The notes under the pieces: generated by a model
What the model saw: only the letters and a program-made list of their open reading frames with translations
What the model was told of the DNA's origin: nothing
The model's database searches: none
IMG/VR virus record: IMGVR_UViG_2703718778_000012
From: a virus
Taxonomy: Duplodnaviria > Heunggongvirae > Uroviricota > Caudoviricetes
DNA length: 25,112 nt
Strand: one strand, 5' to 3'
Translations under genes and position numbers: made by a program
Shown here: positions 1-22,549 of the stretch, in pieces
Position numbering within the stretch: position 1 is the stretch's first letter
Layout: the number at the start of each line of letters is the position of its first letter

Positions 1-1053
1 TTACGGGGTAATGCCAACCGCTGCCGCCACTTTGTCGCCACTTGGCAGCGTTGCCAGAGGATTGAAACGGAGCGCCGTTTCTAGATGATCCGGTGCCAGA
101 TGTGCGTAACGCATAGTCATTTTTATATCGTGGTGTCCGAGAATTTTTTGTAAGGCCAGAATGTTTCCACCCGACATCATGAAGTGCGCCGCAAACGTAT
201 GGCGCAGAACGTGTGTGAGTTGACCGCGAGGGAGCACGATAGACGTTTTTTCCATCACGGATAAAAATTGAAAATAGCAGTCTGTGAAGAAATTGAACCC
301 ATCAAGCGCCATGATCTCTTCGTAAAGCTCTTTACTGATAGGGATGCTTCTGTTTTTCTTCCCCTTCGTTCTGACAAAGGTAATTCGGTATTTGGTCACC
401 TGTGAGCGGGTAAGATTTACGGCTTCACGCCAGCGTGCGCCTGTGCTTAAGCATATCTTAACTACCAGTGCCAGAATTGGGTCCTGACGTTTGCAATCAG
501 CCAGCAATTCAACAATCTGCTCATGGGTAAGCCATGCCATCTCTTTTTCTGCGATGGTGAATTTTCGCATGTTCTCCAGTGGGTTCGGATACGACCATTC
601 GCCCAGACGGGATAGTTCGCTAAAAACACTACTTAGATAGCTTTGCTCCAGGTTAATGGTGACCGGGCTTGCTCCTTTCTTCCATTTCTCGCTGAAGTAG
701 ATCTCGCCTGTCAGGCGTTTATCTCGATAGTGGGCAAACATTTTAGAGGTGAGATCGGTTGCAAGAGGATTGCCCAGAGCGTCAACCATCAACAGCAATT
801 TGTCATAGACATGCTGCCCAGCTGTCAGAGATTTACCATGTAGTTTGAACCATAGCTCAACCACGTCTTTCAGTGTTCGACGATCCACTGATTCACCCAG
901 CCAGGGCTTTGCTTCGGTTTCTTCCATCGTGTGGCGCTCAAAAGCCAGTGCTTCGCCTTTGGTAGCGAATTGTTTACGCACACGACGCCCACTTCGTCCG
1001 GCGGGGTAACATTCGCAAAGCCATTTCCCTGTGGTTAGTTTTCGTACTGCCAT
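1..1053 (-). CDS. int: Phage tyrosine integrase (P2/186 family)
   Basis: 350-aa ORF; N-terminus MAVRKLTTGKW...RRVRKQF is typical of P2/P4-type integrases; C-terminal catalytic region HVLRHTFAAHF...HHDIKMTMRYAHL carries the R/H-x-x-R/Y tyrosine-recombinase motifs. Stop codon is at 1-3. Confidence 0.9.
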   Translation of the reverse strand: MAVRKLTTGKWLCECYPAGRSGRRVRKQFATKGEALAFERHTMEETEAKPWLGESVDRRTLKDVVELWFKLHGKSLTAGQHVYDKLLLMVDALGNPLATDLTSKMFAHYRDKRLTGEIYFSEKWKKGASPVTINLEQSYLSSVFSELSRLGEWSYPNPLENMRKFTIAEKEMAWLTHEQIVELLADCKRQDPILALVVKICLSTGARWREAVNLTRSQVTKYRITFVRTKGKKNRSIPISKELYEEIMALDGFNFFTDCYFQFLSVMEKTSIVLPRGQLTHVLRHTFAAHFMMSGGNILALQKILGHHDIKMTMRYAHLAPDHLETALRFNPLATLPSGDKVAAAVGITP

Positions 1054-1077
1054 AAAAAGCCCTCATATCAGAGGGCT
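1052..1077 (-). terminator. Hairpin plus T-run on the minus strand immediately upstream of the int start; candidate intrinsic terminator/attenuator
   Basis: Perfect 7-bp stem AGCCCTC(1058-1064) / GAGGGCT(1071-1077) with a 6-nt loop; on the minus strand it is followed by TTTTAT and then the int ATG. The int Shine-Dalgarno candidate GAGGG lies in the stem. Confidence 0.4.
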
Positions 1078-1135
1078 AAATTTAACTGTATATGTAACCA
1101 GTAATCAATGTGTGATTACTATGAAACATACATTG

Positions 1136-2812
1136 CTAAGCAACATGTAGTTCATCGTTGGCGGAAGTGGCTGCTTTGCGCTCCTGCTCAATAGCTAGAG
1201 ACTCTCTATATTCTTTCGCCTCTGCAAACATTGTCCAGTGGGCGTTGATGTTCATGTCTTCAATAACTGATTTGATTTCTTTTAAATTTACGTTAAAAAA
1301 CTCTTTTCGTGAGTTAATTTTATTGACCTGCTTTTCGTTGAAAACTTTATGCAGATGGTTTTCTAATGATGGTGCATCATCACTATAAATCATCGCATGA
1401 ACATCGAACGAAAAAGGAACACTAGCATCTCCGAGTTCACGAACACGATCAAGTGGTTCAAGGCGGCGTGTCATTCCAATTTTATATACATCTTCGCCAA
1501 ATGAACCAATATTACTAATGATATAGACGTGGCCTGATCTGGTTTGTTGAGCCATAGAAATAGCTCGTTGATTTTTAGCTTCAGCTTCTTCATATTTTAA
1601 CTGTAGTTCAGCTATTTTTTGCTCTAAAGCTAAGCGTTGTTCTTCATTTGCAAGCATAAGTTCTTTCGTTGCTTTATTTATAGCTTGCTGAATAGCTTTT
1701 TCTTCTTTTTCAGCTTCTTTTATCGCTTTTTCATATTCTCTACGAGCTCTTTCCTCTTCACGAAGCTGTTCTTTAATCCTTCTTTGCTCTTCTTTTTCTT
1801 CGAGCATAATTTCATTAACTGCTACACCCCATTTTAGCTCGTTGAGTCTTGCCTGAAGATAGATGTCACTTATTTTTGCGGACCTAAAGGCAGAGCCATT
1901 GTAATTTACTAGTTGAAATGCATCTTTTATTTCTTGGGAAAGTTTTCCAAAATTGTTGTGTTTGACTTTTGATAAAATACTGTCAACTCTTCCATTGAAG
2001 GCATCCAAAACAAAGTTTATGGCAGTATTACGCCTGTTTTGCTCAACATAATCACACGAAGCAGCTTTATTAGTTTTTATTAATGATTTGGTTAACTCTC
2101 TGGCTTTTTGTAATTCCTTGCCTGCATCTGTAAATTCATAATTTTCTGCCAGCTCATCAAGTACACTACGGTTAGGGATGATCCATTCATCACCATAACC
2201 TTCAATTTTATTTTTCATTGATTTTGCAACTGCTTCATATTTTTCTGCAAACTCTTTAGCTTCATATGCTGAACCAGCAATCTCCTTTGCTCTTTCTTCT
2301 GCATCAGAAATAATTTTTACTGCATTGTCATTAGCATTTGAGATTAGCACATTTGCTTTATTATTAGCATTATCAAGACGTTCTTTGGCTTTCAGGCGTG
2401 CATCGCGAGCGTCTTTGGTGATTGCTATAGCTTCGCTATTAGCGTTGCTTATTGTCATCTGAGCTTGATAATTTGCTTCGTTTACTGTTTTAGCCGCCTT
2501 AATTTGGGCTTCATCTATTTTTTGCTTGGCTATTGAGTCCGCATTTTTTATCTTATTCTCTGCATCCATTACTGCGCTGTGCAATTCTTCGTATTGCCAC
2601 AATGGTGCTGCTCGCCCTTCAAGCTCTGATAATTCTCGTACGGTCTGTGCTAGTTTTTCTTGATTTTCAATCAGTTGGTTGGAAAGGGCTATGTTGTTAG
2701 CTGTCAGGTTATCTATAGCCGCTTTGTGTTTTTTACTTTGTTTAAATAATATTACAGCTAGAACAGGGGCGAGAAATGCTAATAAGAGTATAACGATGGC
2801 AAATGAATTCAT
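1136..2812 (-). CDS. Membrane-anchored coiled-coil protein with C-terminal GIY-YIG-like (T5orf172/DUF4041-type) nuclease domain
   Basis: 558-aa ORF. N-terminal hydrophobic helix (FAIVILLLAFLAPVLAVILF), about 350 aa of K/E/A-rich heptad-like sequence, then C-terminal GHVYIISNIGSFGEDVYKIGMTRR...E...FFNV, which fits a GIY-x(10-12)-YIG core with following conserved R/E/N. Strongly AT-rich compared with flanking int and cI. AAGGA Shine-Dalgarno 7 nt before the ATG; only 20 nt downstream of the cI stop. Confidence 0.65.
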   Translation of the reverse strand: MNSFAIVILLLAFLAPVLAVILFKQSKKHKAAIDNLTANNIALSNQLIENQEKLAQTVRELSELEGRAAPLWQYEELHSAVMDAENKIKNADSIAKQKIDEAQIKAAKTVNEANYQAQMTISNANSEAIAITKDARDARLKAKERLDNANNKANVLISNANDNAVKIISDAEERAKEIAGSAYEAKEFAEKYEAVAKSMKNKIEGYGDEWIIPNRSVLDELAENYEFTDAGKELQKARELTKSLIKTNKAASCDYVEQNRRNTAINFVLDAFNGRVDSILSKVKHNNFGKLSQEIKDAFQLVNYNGSAFRSAKISDIYLQARLNELKWGVAVNEIMLEEKEEQRRIKEQLREEERARREYEKAIKEAEKEEKAIQQAINKATKELMLANEEQRLALEQKIAELQLKYEEAEAKNQRAISMAQQTRSGHVYIISNIGSFGEDVYKIGMTRRLEPLDRVRELGDASVPFSFDVHAMIYSDDAPSLENHLHKVFNEKQVNKINSRKEFFNVNLKEIKSVIEDMNINAHWTMFAEAKEYRESLAIEQERKAATSANDELHVA

Positions 2813-2832
2813 TTTAAAATCCTTTTACTATA

Positions 2833-3429
2833 TTAATTCGAGACTATTGTACTTCTTATACAAGCAACCACTTCAATATCAGAAAATGCACATTCAAAGC
2901 TATTCTCTGCTGTTGTAATTTTAATCATTCCTTTAGGAAGCCTTGTGATTTTTCGAATGGAATAGGTTCCGTCGATATTGATTAACCAGTTTCCATCAAG
3001 TACTTCAGAAAATTTTTGATCACAAATGTATGTGACGAGTCCATCCTGAACAACAATTGGTGATGAAAGGTTTGCAGGAAGAAATGATGAATCGAAGACA
3101 TATGAACCGTCTTCAATCATTTTGCCTGCGGCAAGGCGAAACTTAACAAGCTCTTCTGTAGCTGCTGTCAGCGAGCTTTGCTTAAGGCCTTGTCCGGTAG
3201 TTAACCATTTGAGGGAGGTTCCTGTTTCAAGAGCACATTGGATTATCCAGTCAGCAGGAAATGTATCCCGCAAATACCTGTTCGCTAGTGTGCTTTTTGA
3301 TACTTCCAAGTGATCAGCTAAAGCCTGTCGTGTCGTAAAGCCATAGGCTTCGACTAATCGCTCAATCGCAGCCTTACCACCTTTATTGGGATTTATTTTG
3401 ATCTCACTTGGGTACTTTGATGTTGACAT
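2833..3429 (-). CDS. cI: CI-type immunity repressor (phage 186 CI-like)
   Basis: 198 aa (186 CI is about 192 aa). N-terminal segment AYGF..RQALADHLEVSKSTLANRYLR......CALETGTSLKWLTTGQG resembles a 186 CI-type DNA-binding domain. Position between int and a divergent apl/cII operon matches P2/186 synteny. Confidence 0.75.
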   Translation of the reverse strand: MSTSKYPSEIKINPNKGGKAAIERLVEAYGFTTRQALADHLEVSKSTLANRYLRDTFPADWIIQCALETGTSLKWLTTGQGLKQSSLTAATEELVKFRLAAGKMIEDGSYVFDSSFLPANLSSPIVVQDGLVTYICDQKFSEVLDGNWLINIDGTYSIRKITRLPKGMIKITTAENSFECAFSDIEVVACIRSTIVSN

Positions 3430-3458
3430 ATCTCTTTTGCGATCCTAGTATCAGTTTT

Positions 3459-3474
3459 GTACCCAATTGGGTAC
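3459..3474. promoter_or_regulatory. Perfect 16-bp palindrome in the cI/apl divergent control region; candidate repressor operator
   Basis: GTACCCAATTGGGTAC is its own reverse complement. The half-site TTGGGTAC recurs at 3408-3415 inside the start of cI. A TTGACA-like hexamer lies nearby at about 3422-3427. Confidence 0.4.
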
Positions 3475-3524
3475 TTGTCACGATTACTACAGGCTCACCA
3501 CAAGCCAATAGGAGATGTTGCATC

Positions 3525-3746
3525 ATGACCCCTAACATTTCAATAACTCTGAATACGCCACACGTCACAATCGAGCGTTATAGCGAACTTACTGGTCTTT
3601 CAATCGACACAATCAACGATATGTTGGCGGATGGTCGCATTCCTCGGCATCGTCTTCGTAAAGACAAGAAAAGAGAAAAGGTAATGATCAACCTTGCTGC
3701 TCTTACCGTTGATGCACTTACTGATTGCAATGTTGTATTCAACTAG
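3525..3746 (+). CDS. apl: Apl/Cox-like excisionase and transcriptional regulator
   Basis: 73-aa basic protein ([36 protein letters not shown]) consistent with a small HTH protein. GGAG lies 10 nt upstream of the ATG. First gene of the rightward early operon, directly before cII, as in 186. The ORF track extends it upstream to 3408, which I discount. Confidence 0.6.
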
Positions 3747-3778
3747 TTCCATTTTGGGATACATCAGAGGTGTCGACC

Positions 3779-4288
3779 ATGTTTGATTACCAAGTTTCCA
3801 AACATCCACATTTTGATGAAGCCTGTCGTGCATTCGCACTGCGCCACAATCTGGTGCAACTGGCAGAACGTGCGGGCATGAATGTGCAGATTCTGCGGAA
3901 CAAGCTGAACCCAGCTCAACCTCATTTATTAACCGCACCAGAAATCTGGCTGCTTACCGATCTGACTGAAGATTCAACGTTGGTAGATGGTTTTCTGGCA
4001 CAGATTCATTGTCTGCCATGTGTACCGATTAATGAGGTAGCAAAAGAGAAACTGCCGCATTACGTCATGAGCGCAACTGCAGAGATCGGGCGTGTTGCAG
4101 CAGGTGCGGTATCTGGTGATGTAAAAACTAGTGCCGGTCGTCGTGATGCTATCAGCAGCATTAACTCTGTAACACGACTGATGGCGCTGGCTGCTGTTTC
4201 ATTGCAAGCCCGTTTACAGGCTAATCCTGCGATGGCGAGTGCAGTTGATACCATGACTGGCCTTGGTGCTTCATTCGGTTTGCTGTGA
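3779..4288 (+). CDS. cII: CII-like lysogeny establishment activator (phage 186 CII family)
   Basis: 169 aa from the ATG at 3779 (186 CII is 169 aa). Sequence [20 protein letters not shown]...[16 protein letters not shown]...ASFGLL matches my recollection of 186 CII closely. CAGAGG Shine-Dalgarno upstream. Confidence 0.85.
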
Positions 4289-4295
4289 GGTGTTT

Positions 4296-4592
4296 ATGCT
4301 GACGAAAGAACCATCATTTGCATCGCTGCTGGTAAAACAAAGCCCGGCAATGCACTACGGTCACGGCTGGATCACGGGTGAGGATGGAAAACGCTGGCAT
4401 CCATGTCATTCACAAGATGAATTGCTGTCTGAATTGACCACGAGGAAACGGAGAAAGTCCAAATGTATGCGGCAGAAAGTGAAGTGGTTTATCAGTTTCG
4501 TTACAGAGGGGAGAGTTATTCAGTACCTGAAGATGATTTGCTCTGTTGCTATCCGTCATTGTCGGGCGATGGCAGTTACTTTTTCACGTTAA
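4296..4592 (+). CDS. Early-operon hypothetical protein (position of 186 fil)
   Basis: ATG at 4296 with GAGG upstream. The N-terminal about 55 aa (MLTKEPSFASLLVKQSPAMHYGHGWITGEDGKRWHPCHSQ...) look protein-like. The 3' third of the frame is W/C/M-rich and overlaps the next ORF, so the true stop is uncertain. Confidence 0.45.
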   Translation: MLTKEPSFASLLVKQSPAMHYGHGWITGEDGKRWHPCHSQDELLSELTTRKRRKSKCMRQKVKWFISFVTEGRVIQYLKMICSVAIRHCRAMAVTFSR

Positions 4593-8912: not shown

Positions 8913-8954
8913 TTTTACATCAGTAAGATTATTATATACTGTAAATATAAACAG
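8913..8954 (+). promoter_or_regulatory. SOS promoter: TTTACA-N16-TATACT with an overlapping LexA box CTGTAAATATAAACAG
   Basis: CTGT-N8-ACAG at 8939-8954 matches the E. coli LexA consensus CTGTATATATATACAG at 14 of 16 positions and overlaps a sigma70-like -10 element; it lies about 45 nt upstream of the GGAGGA-ATG of the following ORF. Confidence 0.5.
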
Positions 8955-8997
8955 TGGTTATGTATACAGTATTGCTTGTGGTGTCATAGGAGGAAAA

Positions 8998-9186
8998 ATG
9001 CAGGACTATTTTTTGGAGTCTTTGAAGCTCCAGCGCATTGATTTTTTTCTTAAGCTTGTAGCGGCTAGTGAGTGTAGTGATGAAGAGAAGGGGCTGGCTT
9101 TGCAGTGGGTTTCTGAACTAACAGATGAACTCATGGCAAAAATCAGAACCCACGAATACAACCGCTCAATGGATGTCATCAGTTGA
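8998..9186 (+). CDS. Small SOS-induced protein (possible Tum-like antirepressor N-terminal part)
   Basis: 62 aa from the ATG at 8998, preceded by a strong GGAGGA Shine-Dalgarno. The ORF track's upstream extension to 8896 would read through the LexA box, so I discount it. Confidence 0.5.
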   Translation: MQDYFLESLKLQRIDFFLKLVAASECSDEEKGLALQWVSELTDELMAKIRTHEYNRSMDVIS

Positions 9187-9196
9187 GGTGACTTTT

Positions 9197-9430
9197 ATGC
9201 GCATTGAAATAATGATCGATAAAGAGCAGAAGATTAGCCAGTCTATCCTGGATGCCCTTGAATCCGAGCTTTACCGCAATCTGCGCCCCCTGTATCCAAA
9301 AACGGTAATTCGTATCCGCAAAGGTAGCTCTAACGGTGTGGAACTGACCGGACTGCAACTGGACGAAGAAAGAAAACAAGTGATGAAAATTATGCAGAAG
9401 GTGTGGGAAGACGACAGCTGGCTGCATTAG
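9197..9430 (+). CDS. DinI-family protein
   Basis: 77 aa. MRIEIMIDK...LDALESELYRNLRPLYP...VIRIRKGSSNGVELTG...KIMQKVWEDDSW parallels E. coli DinI (MRIEVTIAK...) in length and pattern. Confidence 0.7.
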   Translation: MRIEIMIDKEQKISQSILDALESELYRNLRPLYPKTVIRIRKGSSNGVELTGLQLDEERKQVMKIMQKVWEDDSWLH

Positions 9431-9558: not shown

Positions 9559-10299
9559 TCAGTTTTCTTTGAATTTTTCACTTAATCGTTTCGTCAATAC
9601 TTCGACAGATTCTTTGCGACCGGAGAACAAGTCATTGACGACGTACTCCATAATCTCAAAAGCATCCTCAATGTCTTTGACTTTTACTTCATCGTAGGTA
9701 TGGCTTCCGGCATTTCCTAAAAATTTAATTGCCATAAGAGGTCTTGAAAACGATCCGTATAATTCAGGTAGCATCCCTAAACGGTGGTGTAGAGTTATGC
9801 GTTTGCCATTATCATTACGTTCAGCTACATCCATAGCGGTTAGCATTCTTTCAACTGAAATTCGAATTAGGTTTGCTGCTGCGCCAGGCTGTATTAGGAA
9901 AATGGAAAATGAGGCTTCAAGCGGTTCGGTAATTTCTTCTGGGCATTTTTCAGGTATTTCGAAAGGATGCAGTGATGGGTAAAAGGTGAAAGGTCTGTGC
10001 CATTGATAGTACTCAATATCATTTCTTTCTTCATCCCAACCTTGTTCCCATCCACTCTTACCAGTACAGGCCACAACTTCACCACATTGCATTCTTGAAC
10101 AGCGGGCCATGCAACTGAAAATAGATGAATCCATTTCTGGTTCAAACCAATCTTCACTGCGGAATTTTCGGGTATCATGTGTGTCATACGAGACGAAACT
10201 TTCTTTAATGATCTGTAGGGTTTTCTGATTGCAGTTAGGGCAGGGCCACTCAACCTGCATATCGTGGAAAAACGCACCAGAGAGCTTGTGCACAGTCAT
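9559..10299 (-). CDS. Hypothetical protein with N-terminal Cys-rich (zinc-ribbon-like) region and C-terminal alpha-helical domain (possibly DUF4145-like)
   Basis: 246-aa ORF, AT-rich relative to backbone. CPNCNQ ... CMARCSRMQCGEVVAC suggests a metal-binding module. The C-terminal half (AAANLIRISVERML...FLGNAGSH) is helical; the DUF4145 assignment is from memory only. Transcribed divergently from the HNH operon. Confidence 0.65.
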   Translation of the reverse strand: MTVHKLSGAFFHDMQVEWPCPNCNQKTLQIIKESFVSYDTHDTRKFRSEDWFEPEMDSSIFSCMARCSRMQCGEVVACTGKSGWEQGWDEERNDIEYYQWHRPFTFYPSLHPFEIPEKCPEEITEPLEASFSIFLIQPGAAANLIRISVERMLTAMDVAERNDNGKRITLHHRLGMLPELYGSFSRPLMAIKFLGNAGSHTYDEVKVKDIEDAFEIMEYVVNDLFSGRKESVEVLTKRLSEKFKEN

Positions 10300-22193: not shown

Positions 22194-22549
22194 CTCTTTA
22201 TAGCGGGATGAACAATACCAGCGGCAAAGCCATTACTGATATTGACCATCTGCGCCAGTCGGTGCGGGACATTCTGCTGACACCACAGGGTAGTCGCATT
22301 GCCCGTCGTGAATATGGTTCCCTGCTGTCGGCACTGATAGATCAGCCACAAAATCCGGCGTTACGCCTGCAGGTTATGTCGGCTGTGTATGTGGCACTGA
22401 GTCGCTGGGAGCCACGGCTGACGCTGGATTCCATCACTATTAACAGCAATTTTGACGGTTCAATGGTGGTGGAGCTGACCGGGCGGCGGAATAACGGTGT
22501 GCCTGTGTCCCTTTCAGTATCAACAGGAGCAGAGAATGGCAGTGATTGA
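22190..22549 (+). CDS. W: Baseplate protein W (gpW/gp25 family)
   Basis: 119 aa. ...DIDHLRQSVRDILLTPQGSRIARREYGSLLSALIDQPQNPALRLQ...SRWEPRLTL parallels P2 gpW. Start overlaps the V stop (ATGA). Confidence 0.85.
   Translation: MTLYSGMNNTSGKAITDIDHLRQSVRDILLTPQGSRIARREYGSLLSALIDQPQNPALRLQVMSAVYVALSRWEPRLTLDSITINSNFDGSMVVELTGRRNNGVPVSLSVSTGAENGSD

Follow-up and report, generated by a model that had tools for sequence, protein, structure and literature searches.

What does a terminator-like hairpin do when it stands directly in front of a phage integrase gene? This question is raised by the left end of a 25,112-nucleotide (nt) stretch of viral DNA (Caudoviricetes; IMG/VR record IMGVR_UViG_2703718778_000012), hereafter called the window, in which a perfect stem-loop lies between the stop codon of a defence cargo gene and the start codon of the integrase gene int, both read on the minus strand. 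The hairpin is about 25 nt from both the gene and a putative int promoter, and therefore it is sensible only if the RNA of that promoter carries an incomplete hairpin. Based on the analysis described here, int would have a conserved control unit in two parts, an SOS-gated promoter followed by a read-through insulator, and the hairpin would be the second of these, a reading to which we assign a probability of about 0.5.

On the minus strand, positions 1085 to 1048 read, in order, TTAAAT, TT, AGCCCTC, TGATAT, GAGGGCT, TTTT, ATG and GCA, with TTAAATTT running 5′ into the arm AGCCCTC. The int hairpin (1058–1077), recognized by folding, scanning and co-variation, is composed of a 5′ arm at 1077–1071, a 6-nt loop (tgatat) at 1070–1065 and a 3′ arm at 1064–1058; its perfect stem of 7 base pairs (bp) includes five G-C pairs, and both stem and loop lie within the limits for an intrinsic terminator (a G+C-rich stem of 5–14 bp and a loop of 3–8 nt). 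The motif GAGGG (1064–1060), the sole Shine-Dalgarno (SD)-like sequence within the last 20 nt before the int ATG (1053–1051), is located wholly inside the 3′ arm, 6 nt 5′ of the ATG. Between stem and start codon runs UUUU (1054–1057), followed by the A of AUG, so that 5 U are found among the next 7 nt. The stem, the TTTTAT run, the int ATG and the sole SD in the 3′ arm are exactly as the original prediction had described them, and the cargo gene does end at 1136 as it implied (TAG at 1138–1136), with the hairpin following 58 nt further on. The folding-energy calculation that it proposed also bore it out, since the hairpin folded alone reached −13.3 kcal/mol and the whole 101-nt spacer −32.1 kcal/mol (z = −5.46; 0 of 200 shuffles equally stable). 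A consensus scanner ranked the int hairpin as the best terminator-like site in 1–4500 (tail TTTTATGGCA). In the RNA reading through from upstream, the unpaired probability of GAGGG was 0.00, that is, the SD is base-paired.

For comparison, the 60 nt upstream of int were sampled from 70 further loci on contigs of more than 15 genera, with Int identities of 48–100%. The sampled int loci split into two architectures, box-bearing and box-less. Of the 76 int loci, 44 (43 distinct sequences, again from more than 15 genera) have the LexA-box pattern CTG[T/G]-N8-ACAG at positions −45 to −52 relative to the ATG. About 40 of the 43 distinct box-bearing sequences carry an SD-sequestering hairpin between the candidate −10 hexamer and the ATG, with the SD in the 3′ arm, vs. 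0 of 29 box-less ones, and therefore hairpin and box go together. The fold energies separated the two classes accordingly. Box-bearing int starts (n = 43) had a median of −13.3 kcal/mol, 74% of them at or below −12, whereas the box-less int starts (n = 29) had a median of −0.9 kcal/mol with none at or below −12. Over the 32-nt initiation regions of 458 long open reading frames (ORFs) from the same loci, used as background, the median was −2.25 kcal/mol (box-bearing int vs. background, Mann–Whitney p = 3e-22). Because only 0.9% of these background ORFs are so structured at their starts (at or below −12 kcal/mol), the int hairpin is not a chance feature.

The stems themselves differ in sequence among relatives. 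Variants include AGCCCUC/GAGGGCU, UGCUCUC/GAGGGCA, GUAGCCC/GGGCUAC and CCCCCUU/AAGGGGG, and further ACUCUCCUAA/UUAGGAGAGU, CACAUUCUC/GAGAAUGUG, UCCUCCAUU/AAUGGAGGA and ACAGUCCUC/GGGGGCUGU. Relative to AGCCCTC/GAGGGCT of the window, the L004-type stem TGCTCTC/GAGGGCA has its outer pair inverted and a U-G in place of one C-G. Every 3′ arm holds a G-rich SD, so the co-variation of the arms, assessed over 14–16 families, was tested by half swaps. Over 14 families, cognate arm pairs gave a mean of −12.2 kcal/mol vs. −6.2 kcal/mol for chimeras, and 0 of 5000 permutations reached the observed value. Consistently, 35 double-sided changes were counted in a stem-registered alignment vs. 8.9 ± 3.2 in shuffles (0 of 500); as 100% pairing is built into such an alignment, only the shuffle control is informative. 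MAFFT with RNAalifold on 26 hairpin regions returned no consensus structure because the stems vary in length and register, for which reason the half swap and the pair count were used instead. The int hairpin is almost certainly kept by selection. The occlusion of the SD claimed by the original prediction is therefore retained across genera, and it probably reduces translation of read-through RNA.

One alternative, close to the view of the original prediction but without the promoter, would be a plain intrinsic terminator of the cI-cargo transcript, in which the SD falls into the stem merely due to the short spacer and the LexA-like box is irrelevant. The top rank of the hairpin among terminator-like sites, 58 nt past the cargo stop, is as this explanation expects, as are a cargo gene that begins 20 nt past cI with no evident promoter of its own and the longer U-runs (6–7 U) of Escherichia/Klebsiella-type relatives. 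However, at least 5 U in the 8 nt past the stem were found in only 19 of the 43 variants. In detail, the run comprises 4–7 U in the Escherichia/Klebsiella type (6–7 in some relatives), but is absent from the variants in which int follows the late activator gene ogr and from the Serratia, Yersinia and Brenneria variants in cargo context, and some stems reach the AUG. With the U-run in only about half of the variants, SD occlusion, not termination, is the conserved feature, and predicted termination is a clade-specific addition. Also contrary to a plain terminator, the hairpin is kept without a U-run in Serratia, Yersinia, Brenneria, Rahnella, Ewingella and Pantoea variants, some stems abutting the AUG; it is present in the cargo-less phage ESSI2_ev129 but missing where, as in PSP3, a box-less int does follow a cargo; its occurrence is strictly tied to that of the box (about 40/43 vs. 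0/29); and the SD always lies in the 3′ arm. We therefore regard this alternative as unlikely. The original prediction of a terminator for cI-cargo read-through is plausible for the Escherichia/Klebsiella-type variant, and for the variant in the window we lean towards efficient termination, but this is not the conserved function.

The upstream half of the proposed unit is a LexA/SOS box (20-mer TACTGGTTACATATACAGTT, 1084–1103, minus strand), recognized by pattern match and weight matrix, with the core CTGG-N8-ACAG reading CTGGTTACATATACAG at 1101–1086. Scored with an uncurated matrix built from 22 Escherichia coli LexA operators, so that all scores are approximate, the box reached 22.7 bits and ranked second in the 25-kb window behind 8937–8956 (23.3 bits), the next non-SOS position having 8.1 bits. 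All 43 distinct int-upstream boxes scored 15.1–26.1 bits, comparable to the 12.8–25.6 bits of the training operators, and just 53 of 647,198 scanned positions reached 14 bits or more. From this, the box upstream of int is very probably a genuine LexA operator.

Promoter-like hexamers flank the box on the int-sense strand. The candidate −35, TTGATT (1103–1108, minus strand), lies in the conserved block ACATTGAC, where relatives carry TTGACC, TTGACA or TTTACA, and the candidate −10, TTAAAT (1080–1085, minus strand), belongs to the conserved column block T(T/A)AAAT right after the box; an alternative −10 would be TAAATT at 1084–1079 with an 18-nt spacer. The box-anchored consensus of the relatives is caaACATTGAccA-CTGtTtatAtATACAG-T(T/A)AAAT, in short form ACATTGAccA-box-T(T/A)AAAT, and the 16–17-nt spacer between −35 and −10 is wholly occupied by the SOS-box palindrome. 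An independent scanner called the promoter TTTACA-16-TAAAAT (10/12) in one relative (L029) and TTGACC-18-TAAATT (9/12) in another (L009). TACAGT and TATACA inside the box were considered as −10 and rejected by inspection, as their spacers would be only 10–12 nt. A functional int promoter around the box is likely on these grounds. It would be of the sigma-70 type (−35 at 1108–1103, −10 at 1085–1080) with a LexA operator in its spacer, making int derepressible by the SOS response. The box and hexamers (1108–1080) were missed by the original prediction, whose interpretation was that the hairpin keeps Int low in the lysogen; the occlusion on which it relied is retained, while the reading shifts to uncoupling int under SOS control.

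The box palindrome by itself does not assign a strand, and the hexamers of the window are weak, so LexA might instead act as a roadblock to polymerase coming from the cargo gene, or the box might be an unrelated operator serving an antisense promoter, with the hairpin being independent. Inspection of the window sequence revealed no similar hexamers on the opposite strand, however, and it is on the int-sense strand that the TTGAC(C/A)/TTTACA and T(T/A)AAAT blocks are conserved, spaced 16–18 nt apart around the box. Moreover, int in the ogr context has no other obvious promoter. We consider a roadblock or unrelated operator very unlikely.

The spacing between the candidate −10 and the hairpin is fixed. 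Among the 41 sequences with a hairpin, the last base of the 5′ arm invariably falls at +7 to +10 past the −10, the distance from hexamer to ATG being 23–30 nt, and in all but one of them (40 of 41) a start at the canonical +7 would cost the 5′ arm half of its length or more. Over the 43 relatives, the median SD accessibility was 0.04 in read-through RNA vs. 0.38 in promoter-start RNA. From the sequence features, their conservation, co-variation and co-occurrence and this geometry, all of which are observed, we infer LexA binding, promoter activity, the position of the transcription start, termination efficiency and the translational effect, which would combine as follows. RNA from upstream, started at pL/pE and running through cI and the SNIPE cargo gene, would contain both arms, so the stem-loop that separates the −10 from the start codon would form and, through pairing of its 3′ arm, bury the int SD; in the Escherichia/Klebsiella-type variant, the U-run should in addition terminate most upstream transcripts. 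The unit would in this way serve as an insulator that ends the cI-cargo operon and leaves read-through RNA translationally silent. RNA from the int-proximal promoter would start about 7 nt past the −10, inside the 5′ arm, and with much of this arm missing it would escape termination with its SD at least partly exposed. We give even odds to such a start within the 5′ arm. The net effect would be that Int synthesis is uncoupled from the repressor and defence genes and coupled to LexA cleavage, in parallel to the LexA-controlled Tum-type antirepressor.

The start position is also what separates this mechanism from a constitutive leader hairpin, in which the LexA-controlled promoter would start transcription before the 5′ arm or on its first base. 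Each int mRNA would then carry the full stem-loop, which would damp translation, keeping a potentially harmful recombinase scarce, and would stabilise the message as a 5′-terminal structure. The nearest purines past the −10 in the window are at +3/+4 (A1077 and G1076), the first arm bases, as such a start would require, and with starts at +1 to +5 the SD stays completely paired in the RNA. Low Int synthesis in phage P2 is reportedly achieved by post-transcriptional control, which would also fit. A start merely 3–4 nt past the −10 is unusual, however; in U-run variants, the promoter's own transcripts would end about 25 nt after initiation, making the promoter pointless; and the fixed +7 to +10 end of the 5′ arm in all families would be left unexplained. 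A constitutive leader hairpin is thus improbable in our judgment.

Several observations nevertheless weigh against the two-part unit with a start inside the arm. SD release in the window is partial and strongly start-dependent (0.09–0.5), the computed accessibility being 0.00 for starts at +1 to +5, 0.09 at +7, 0.39 at +8 and about 0.5 at +9/+10, and positions +6 to +9 past the −10 are all pyrimidines. The scanner called no int-proximal promoter in the window, whose hexamers TTGATT/TTAAAT are weak, and TTAAAT is without the usual A at position 2. The U-run of the window is short (4–5 U, then A), and with a U-run absent in about half of the variants, the two functions of the hairpin need not coincide. 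The LexA matrix was derived from an uncurated operator set and the stem-registered alignment was fitted to the structure. Finally, with read-through blocked and the promoter LexA-repressed, the model does not by itself provide the Int needed for lysogenisation, which may come from basal promoter activity or from partial read-through from the CII-activated promoter.

The hairpin goes with int rather than with the cargo gene. The conserved int-proximal flank (1054–1134, minus strand), delimited by alignment A1 and megablast, forms the right border of the cargo slot. Conservation begins directly past the stop codons of four unrelated cargos in alignment A1, and megablast matches in E. coli genomes stop at about 1111–1135. 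In E. coli prophages at the rcdA site with the same int, the contents of the cI-int slot vary, being an Old nuclease (9e-235), an AriA/Old-like ATPase, a 329-amino acid (aa) unknown protein or a mere 63-aa ORF, while all variants share the stretch of about 80 nt from the cargo stop to the int ATG, hairpin included. AbiU and PDC-S20/PifA-like cargos occupy the slot in other genera. Phage ESSI2_ev129 has no cargo at all, just 77 nt, which contain a unit of this kind, separating its cI from int, and the unit also occurs in isolated phages of the 4LV2017 type. In Ewingella, Rahnella, Pantoea and related prophages (L028–L040, L047 and L080), the order gpU-gpD-ogr-unit-int was found on one strand (e.g., 1910–4001 of L032). 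In P2 and 186, by contrast, int adjoins the repressor gene and is convergent with ogr, whereas in these prophages int lies downstream of ogr and the SOS-box/hairpin unit is retained. Two narrower placements were rejected on these data, the hairpin as part of the SNIPE cassette because conservation starts right past the stops of unrelated cargos, and a unit present only where a cargo exists because of ESSI2_ev129 and the ogr context. Likewise, the suggestion of the original prediction that the hairpin was created when the cargo gene was inserted does not hold, as the same flank stands at unrelated cargos, in the cargo-less ESSI2_ev129 and after ogr.

Most box-less loci are compact, and their cI of about 200 aa stops 1–3 nt upstream of int, Fels-2 and 186 being examples. 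In PSP3, a small cargo is accompanied by neither box nor hairpin. In phage 186 itself, cI and int share base 22433 within one pL/pE operon and there is no spacer, box or hairpin. The window resembles 186 in its cI, cII and int-family lysogeny module and in a LexA-controlled antirepressor-type operon (p95-tum style), but differs in having a defence gene, a terminator-like hairpin and a LexA box between cI and int, and it lacks the cI-int operon that is typical of 186. Because of the one-base cI-int overlap without box or hairpin in 186, the architecture of the window is taken as derived and uncoupled. The int class with the unit was found in prophages of E. coli, Klebsiella, Enterobacter, Serratia, Yersinia, Rahnella and Pantoea, and the 5′ end of int with its adjoining spacer (window 950–1250) matched 1082 of 5426 complete E. 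coli genomes. Two side observations were made at these loci. In ESSI2_ev129 (L084), a serine acetyltransferase gene (3807–4424) lies downstream of int on the att side and would fit the "integrase-att" cargo position named in PMC13586616. Some prophages at the rcdA site have, beside this int unit, a gene annotated as "phage repressor protein CI" (L001 5991–6929; L002 5191–6129) whose product has 312 aa, not about 190–200, which suggests that it carries an extra domain.

Phage P2 (L086) presents a different solution at the same junction. Its 115-nt C-int spacer holds a stem-loop, GGTGGCT/AGCCACC, about 60–85 nt upstream of int, without a U-run and without a LexA box, and the SD of P2 int (GGAGGG) is not strongly paired (−4.1 kcal/mol).

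Other systems combine similar elements in different ways. In lambda, sib lies downstream of int and acts via RNase III decay of anti-terminated pL transcripts. The int unit would share with sib the post-transcriptional discrimination among int transcripts of different promoters, but it lies upstream of the gene and would act on translation initiation and termination. In IS10 and IS50, the transposase promoter reportedly starts inside the inverted repeat, so that only read-through RNA folds onto the ribosome-binding site, which is the geometry proposed here with a start within the 5′ arm. In IS200, one stem-loop terminates impinging transcripts and another occludes the ribosome-binding site (PMC3196728), and a recombinase gene is likewise shielded by RNA structure from outside transcription. 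Unlike in IS200, IS10 and IS50, the int unit would use a single hairpin for both jobs, its gene encodes a phage integrase and not a transposase, its promoter contains a LexA operator, and no sequence relationship exists. As for the promoter half, a conserved LexA box overlaps the integron integrase promoters (PintI) and ties recombination to the SOS response, its prevalence having been established by comparative genomics (PMC3108266). In both cases, a tyrosine recombinase has a LexA box at its promoter, but the integron enzyme belongs to another recombinase clade and element type, the box of the phage unit fills the −35/−10 spacer of int, and the integron unit as described in PMC3108266 has no SD-sequestering or terminator hairpin.

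Among phages of this group, LexA and Tum mediate the induction of the P2-like prophage DuoHS, for which only the control of tum by LexA is documented (PMC12055606). The cI-int slot, with its interchangeable SNIPE/PD-Lambda-1, Old, AbiU, PDC-S20/PifA-like and AriA-like genes, fits the minor "integrase-primase" hotspot that accounts for 8% of P2 systems (PMC13586616); that paper does not describe the int-side border of the hotspot, and the terms LexA and terminator occur in it zero times. No prior description of a LexA box upstream of a P2/186-type int, or of the box-hairpin unit, was found in the searchable literature, which is not proof that it is unreported.

The surrounding genes form a lysogeny module of the phage 186 type at the left end of the window, consisting of int, cargo, cI and a divergent cII. 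The window is 99.9% identical to the isolated phage vB_EcoM-813R9 across 3.5 kb, and at the int unit this phage and E. coli MS8345 match it at 99.9–100%. The int ORF (1–1053, minus strand) encodes a 350-aa P2/186-family tyrosine integrase (Pfam Int_N, 3e-32; Phage_integrase, 7e-22), and its start is sound, as relatives align from residue 1. The cargo gene (1136–2812, minus strand) encodes a 558-aa homologue of the SNIPE/PD-Lambda-1 anti-phage nuclease (Pfam DUF4041 and T5orf172/MUG113; PADLOC PD-Lambda-1, 3.6e-120), carries the RefSeq name "SNIPE associated domain", and belongs with a characterised membrane-bound anti-phage nuclease (PMC13190303). The 186-type immunity repressor gene cI (2833–3429, minus strand; Pfam Phage_CI_repr, 8e-32; Phage_CI_C, 3.5e-27) is the first gene of the lysogenic transcript, and since the cargo gene starts 20 nt past it, the two are most simply co-transcribed. 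The gap between cI and int is 1.78 kb here, made up of the cargo gene and the 82-nt hairpin-bearing spacer.

Within this spacer, a second hairpin, AGTAATCA/cacat/TGATTACT (1100–1120, minus strand), was recognized by folding; it extends over the candidate −35 into the beginning of the LexA box and, in RNA, would be part of the very stable −32.1 kcal/mol fold. It was seen only in the two SNIPE-linked sequences read there (the window and L007), and other loci differ. A search of Rfam returned only matches below threshold, namely RyhB (1051–1119, minus strand; 28.5 bits vs. a gathering score of 55; E = 0.0024), TarA and SpF51, and membership in these families was rejected on their scores; the RyhB match most probably reflects the two hairpins together with the U-run. 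An RNA thermometer was rejected as well, the stems being perfect and G+C-rich. On the opposite strand, the hairpin of the window is followed by AAATTT and no U-run, while the scanner made a marginal antisense terminator-like call in L029.

Outside the module, two overlapping SOS boxes (8937–8971, plus strand; TACTGTAAATATAAACAGTG, 23.3 bits, and CAGTGGTTATGTATACAGTA, 15.4 bits) are situated just after the replication gene, on the promoter before ORFs 8998–9186 (62 aa) and 9125–9430 (101 aa). We take their tandem layout to resemble that of colicin promoters. The 62-aa ORF is without a Pfam match and the 101-aa protein has a DinI domain (2.5e-22); the operon at 8998–9430 is presumably the Tum-type antirepressor module of the phage. 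Given these boxes and the DinI-like operon, the phage is already wired to LexA. Directly past the SOS operon, 9559–10299 (minus strand) encodes a 246-aa DUF4145 protein (5e-13) with a weak PADLOC match to PD-T7-4 (2e-05). The location of this gene corresponds to the gpA-gpQ defence hotspot known from P2-like phages, which makes it a possible second cargo.

Taken together, the data suggest that int has left the control of the repressor operon and come under that of the SOS response. Tentatively, a large 186-like clade across Enterobacterales may have swapped a cI-coupled int for an SOS-gated, read-through-proof cassette. We rate the unit as a combination of known kinds of control, the SOS-regulated recombinase promoters and the hairpins by which mobile elements insulate themselves from read-through. 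The prophage class concerned is common, as roughly one in five complete E. coli genomes has an int of this type together with the adjoining spacer. The box-plus-hairpin signature offers an easy marker of this int class, and the unit is a candidate for a compact natural part that joins an SOS-inducible promoter to a read-through insulator. If the reading is true, LexA would license excision directly at int, parallel to Tum acting on CI, so that SOS control of 186-type phages would be exerted at two points, antirepressor and integrase, which bears on the timing of excision vs. derepression. The cassette would then also let the cI-int junction serve as a plug-in slot for defence genes that are constitutively expressed together with cI in all lysogens, without over-production of integrase, and the defence hotspot would have its insulating border in the conserved spacer.

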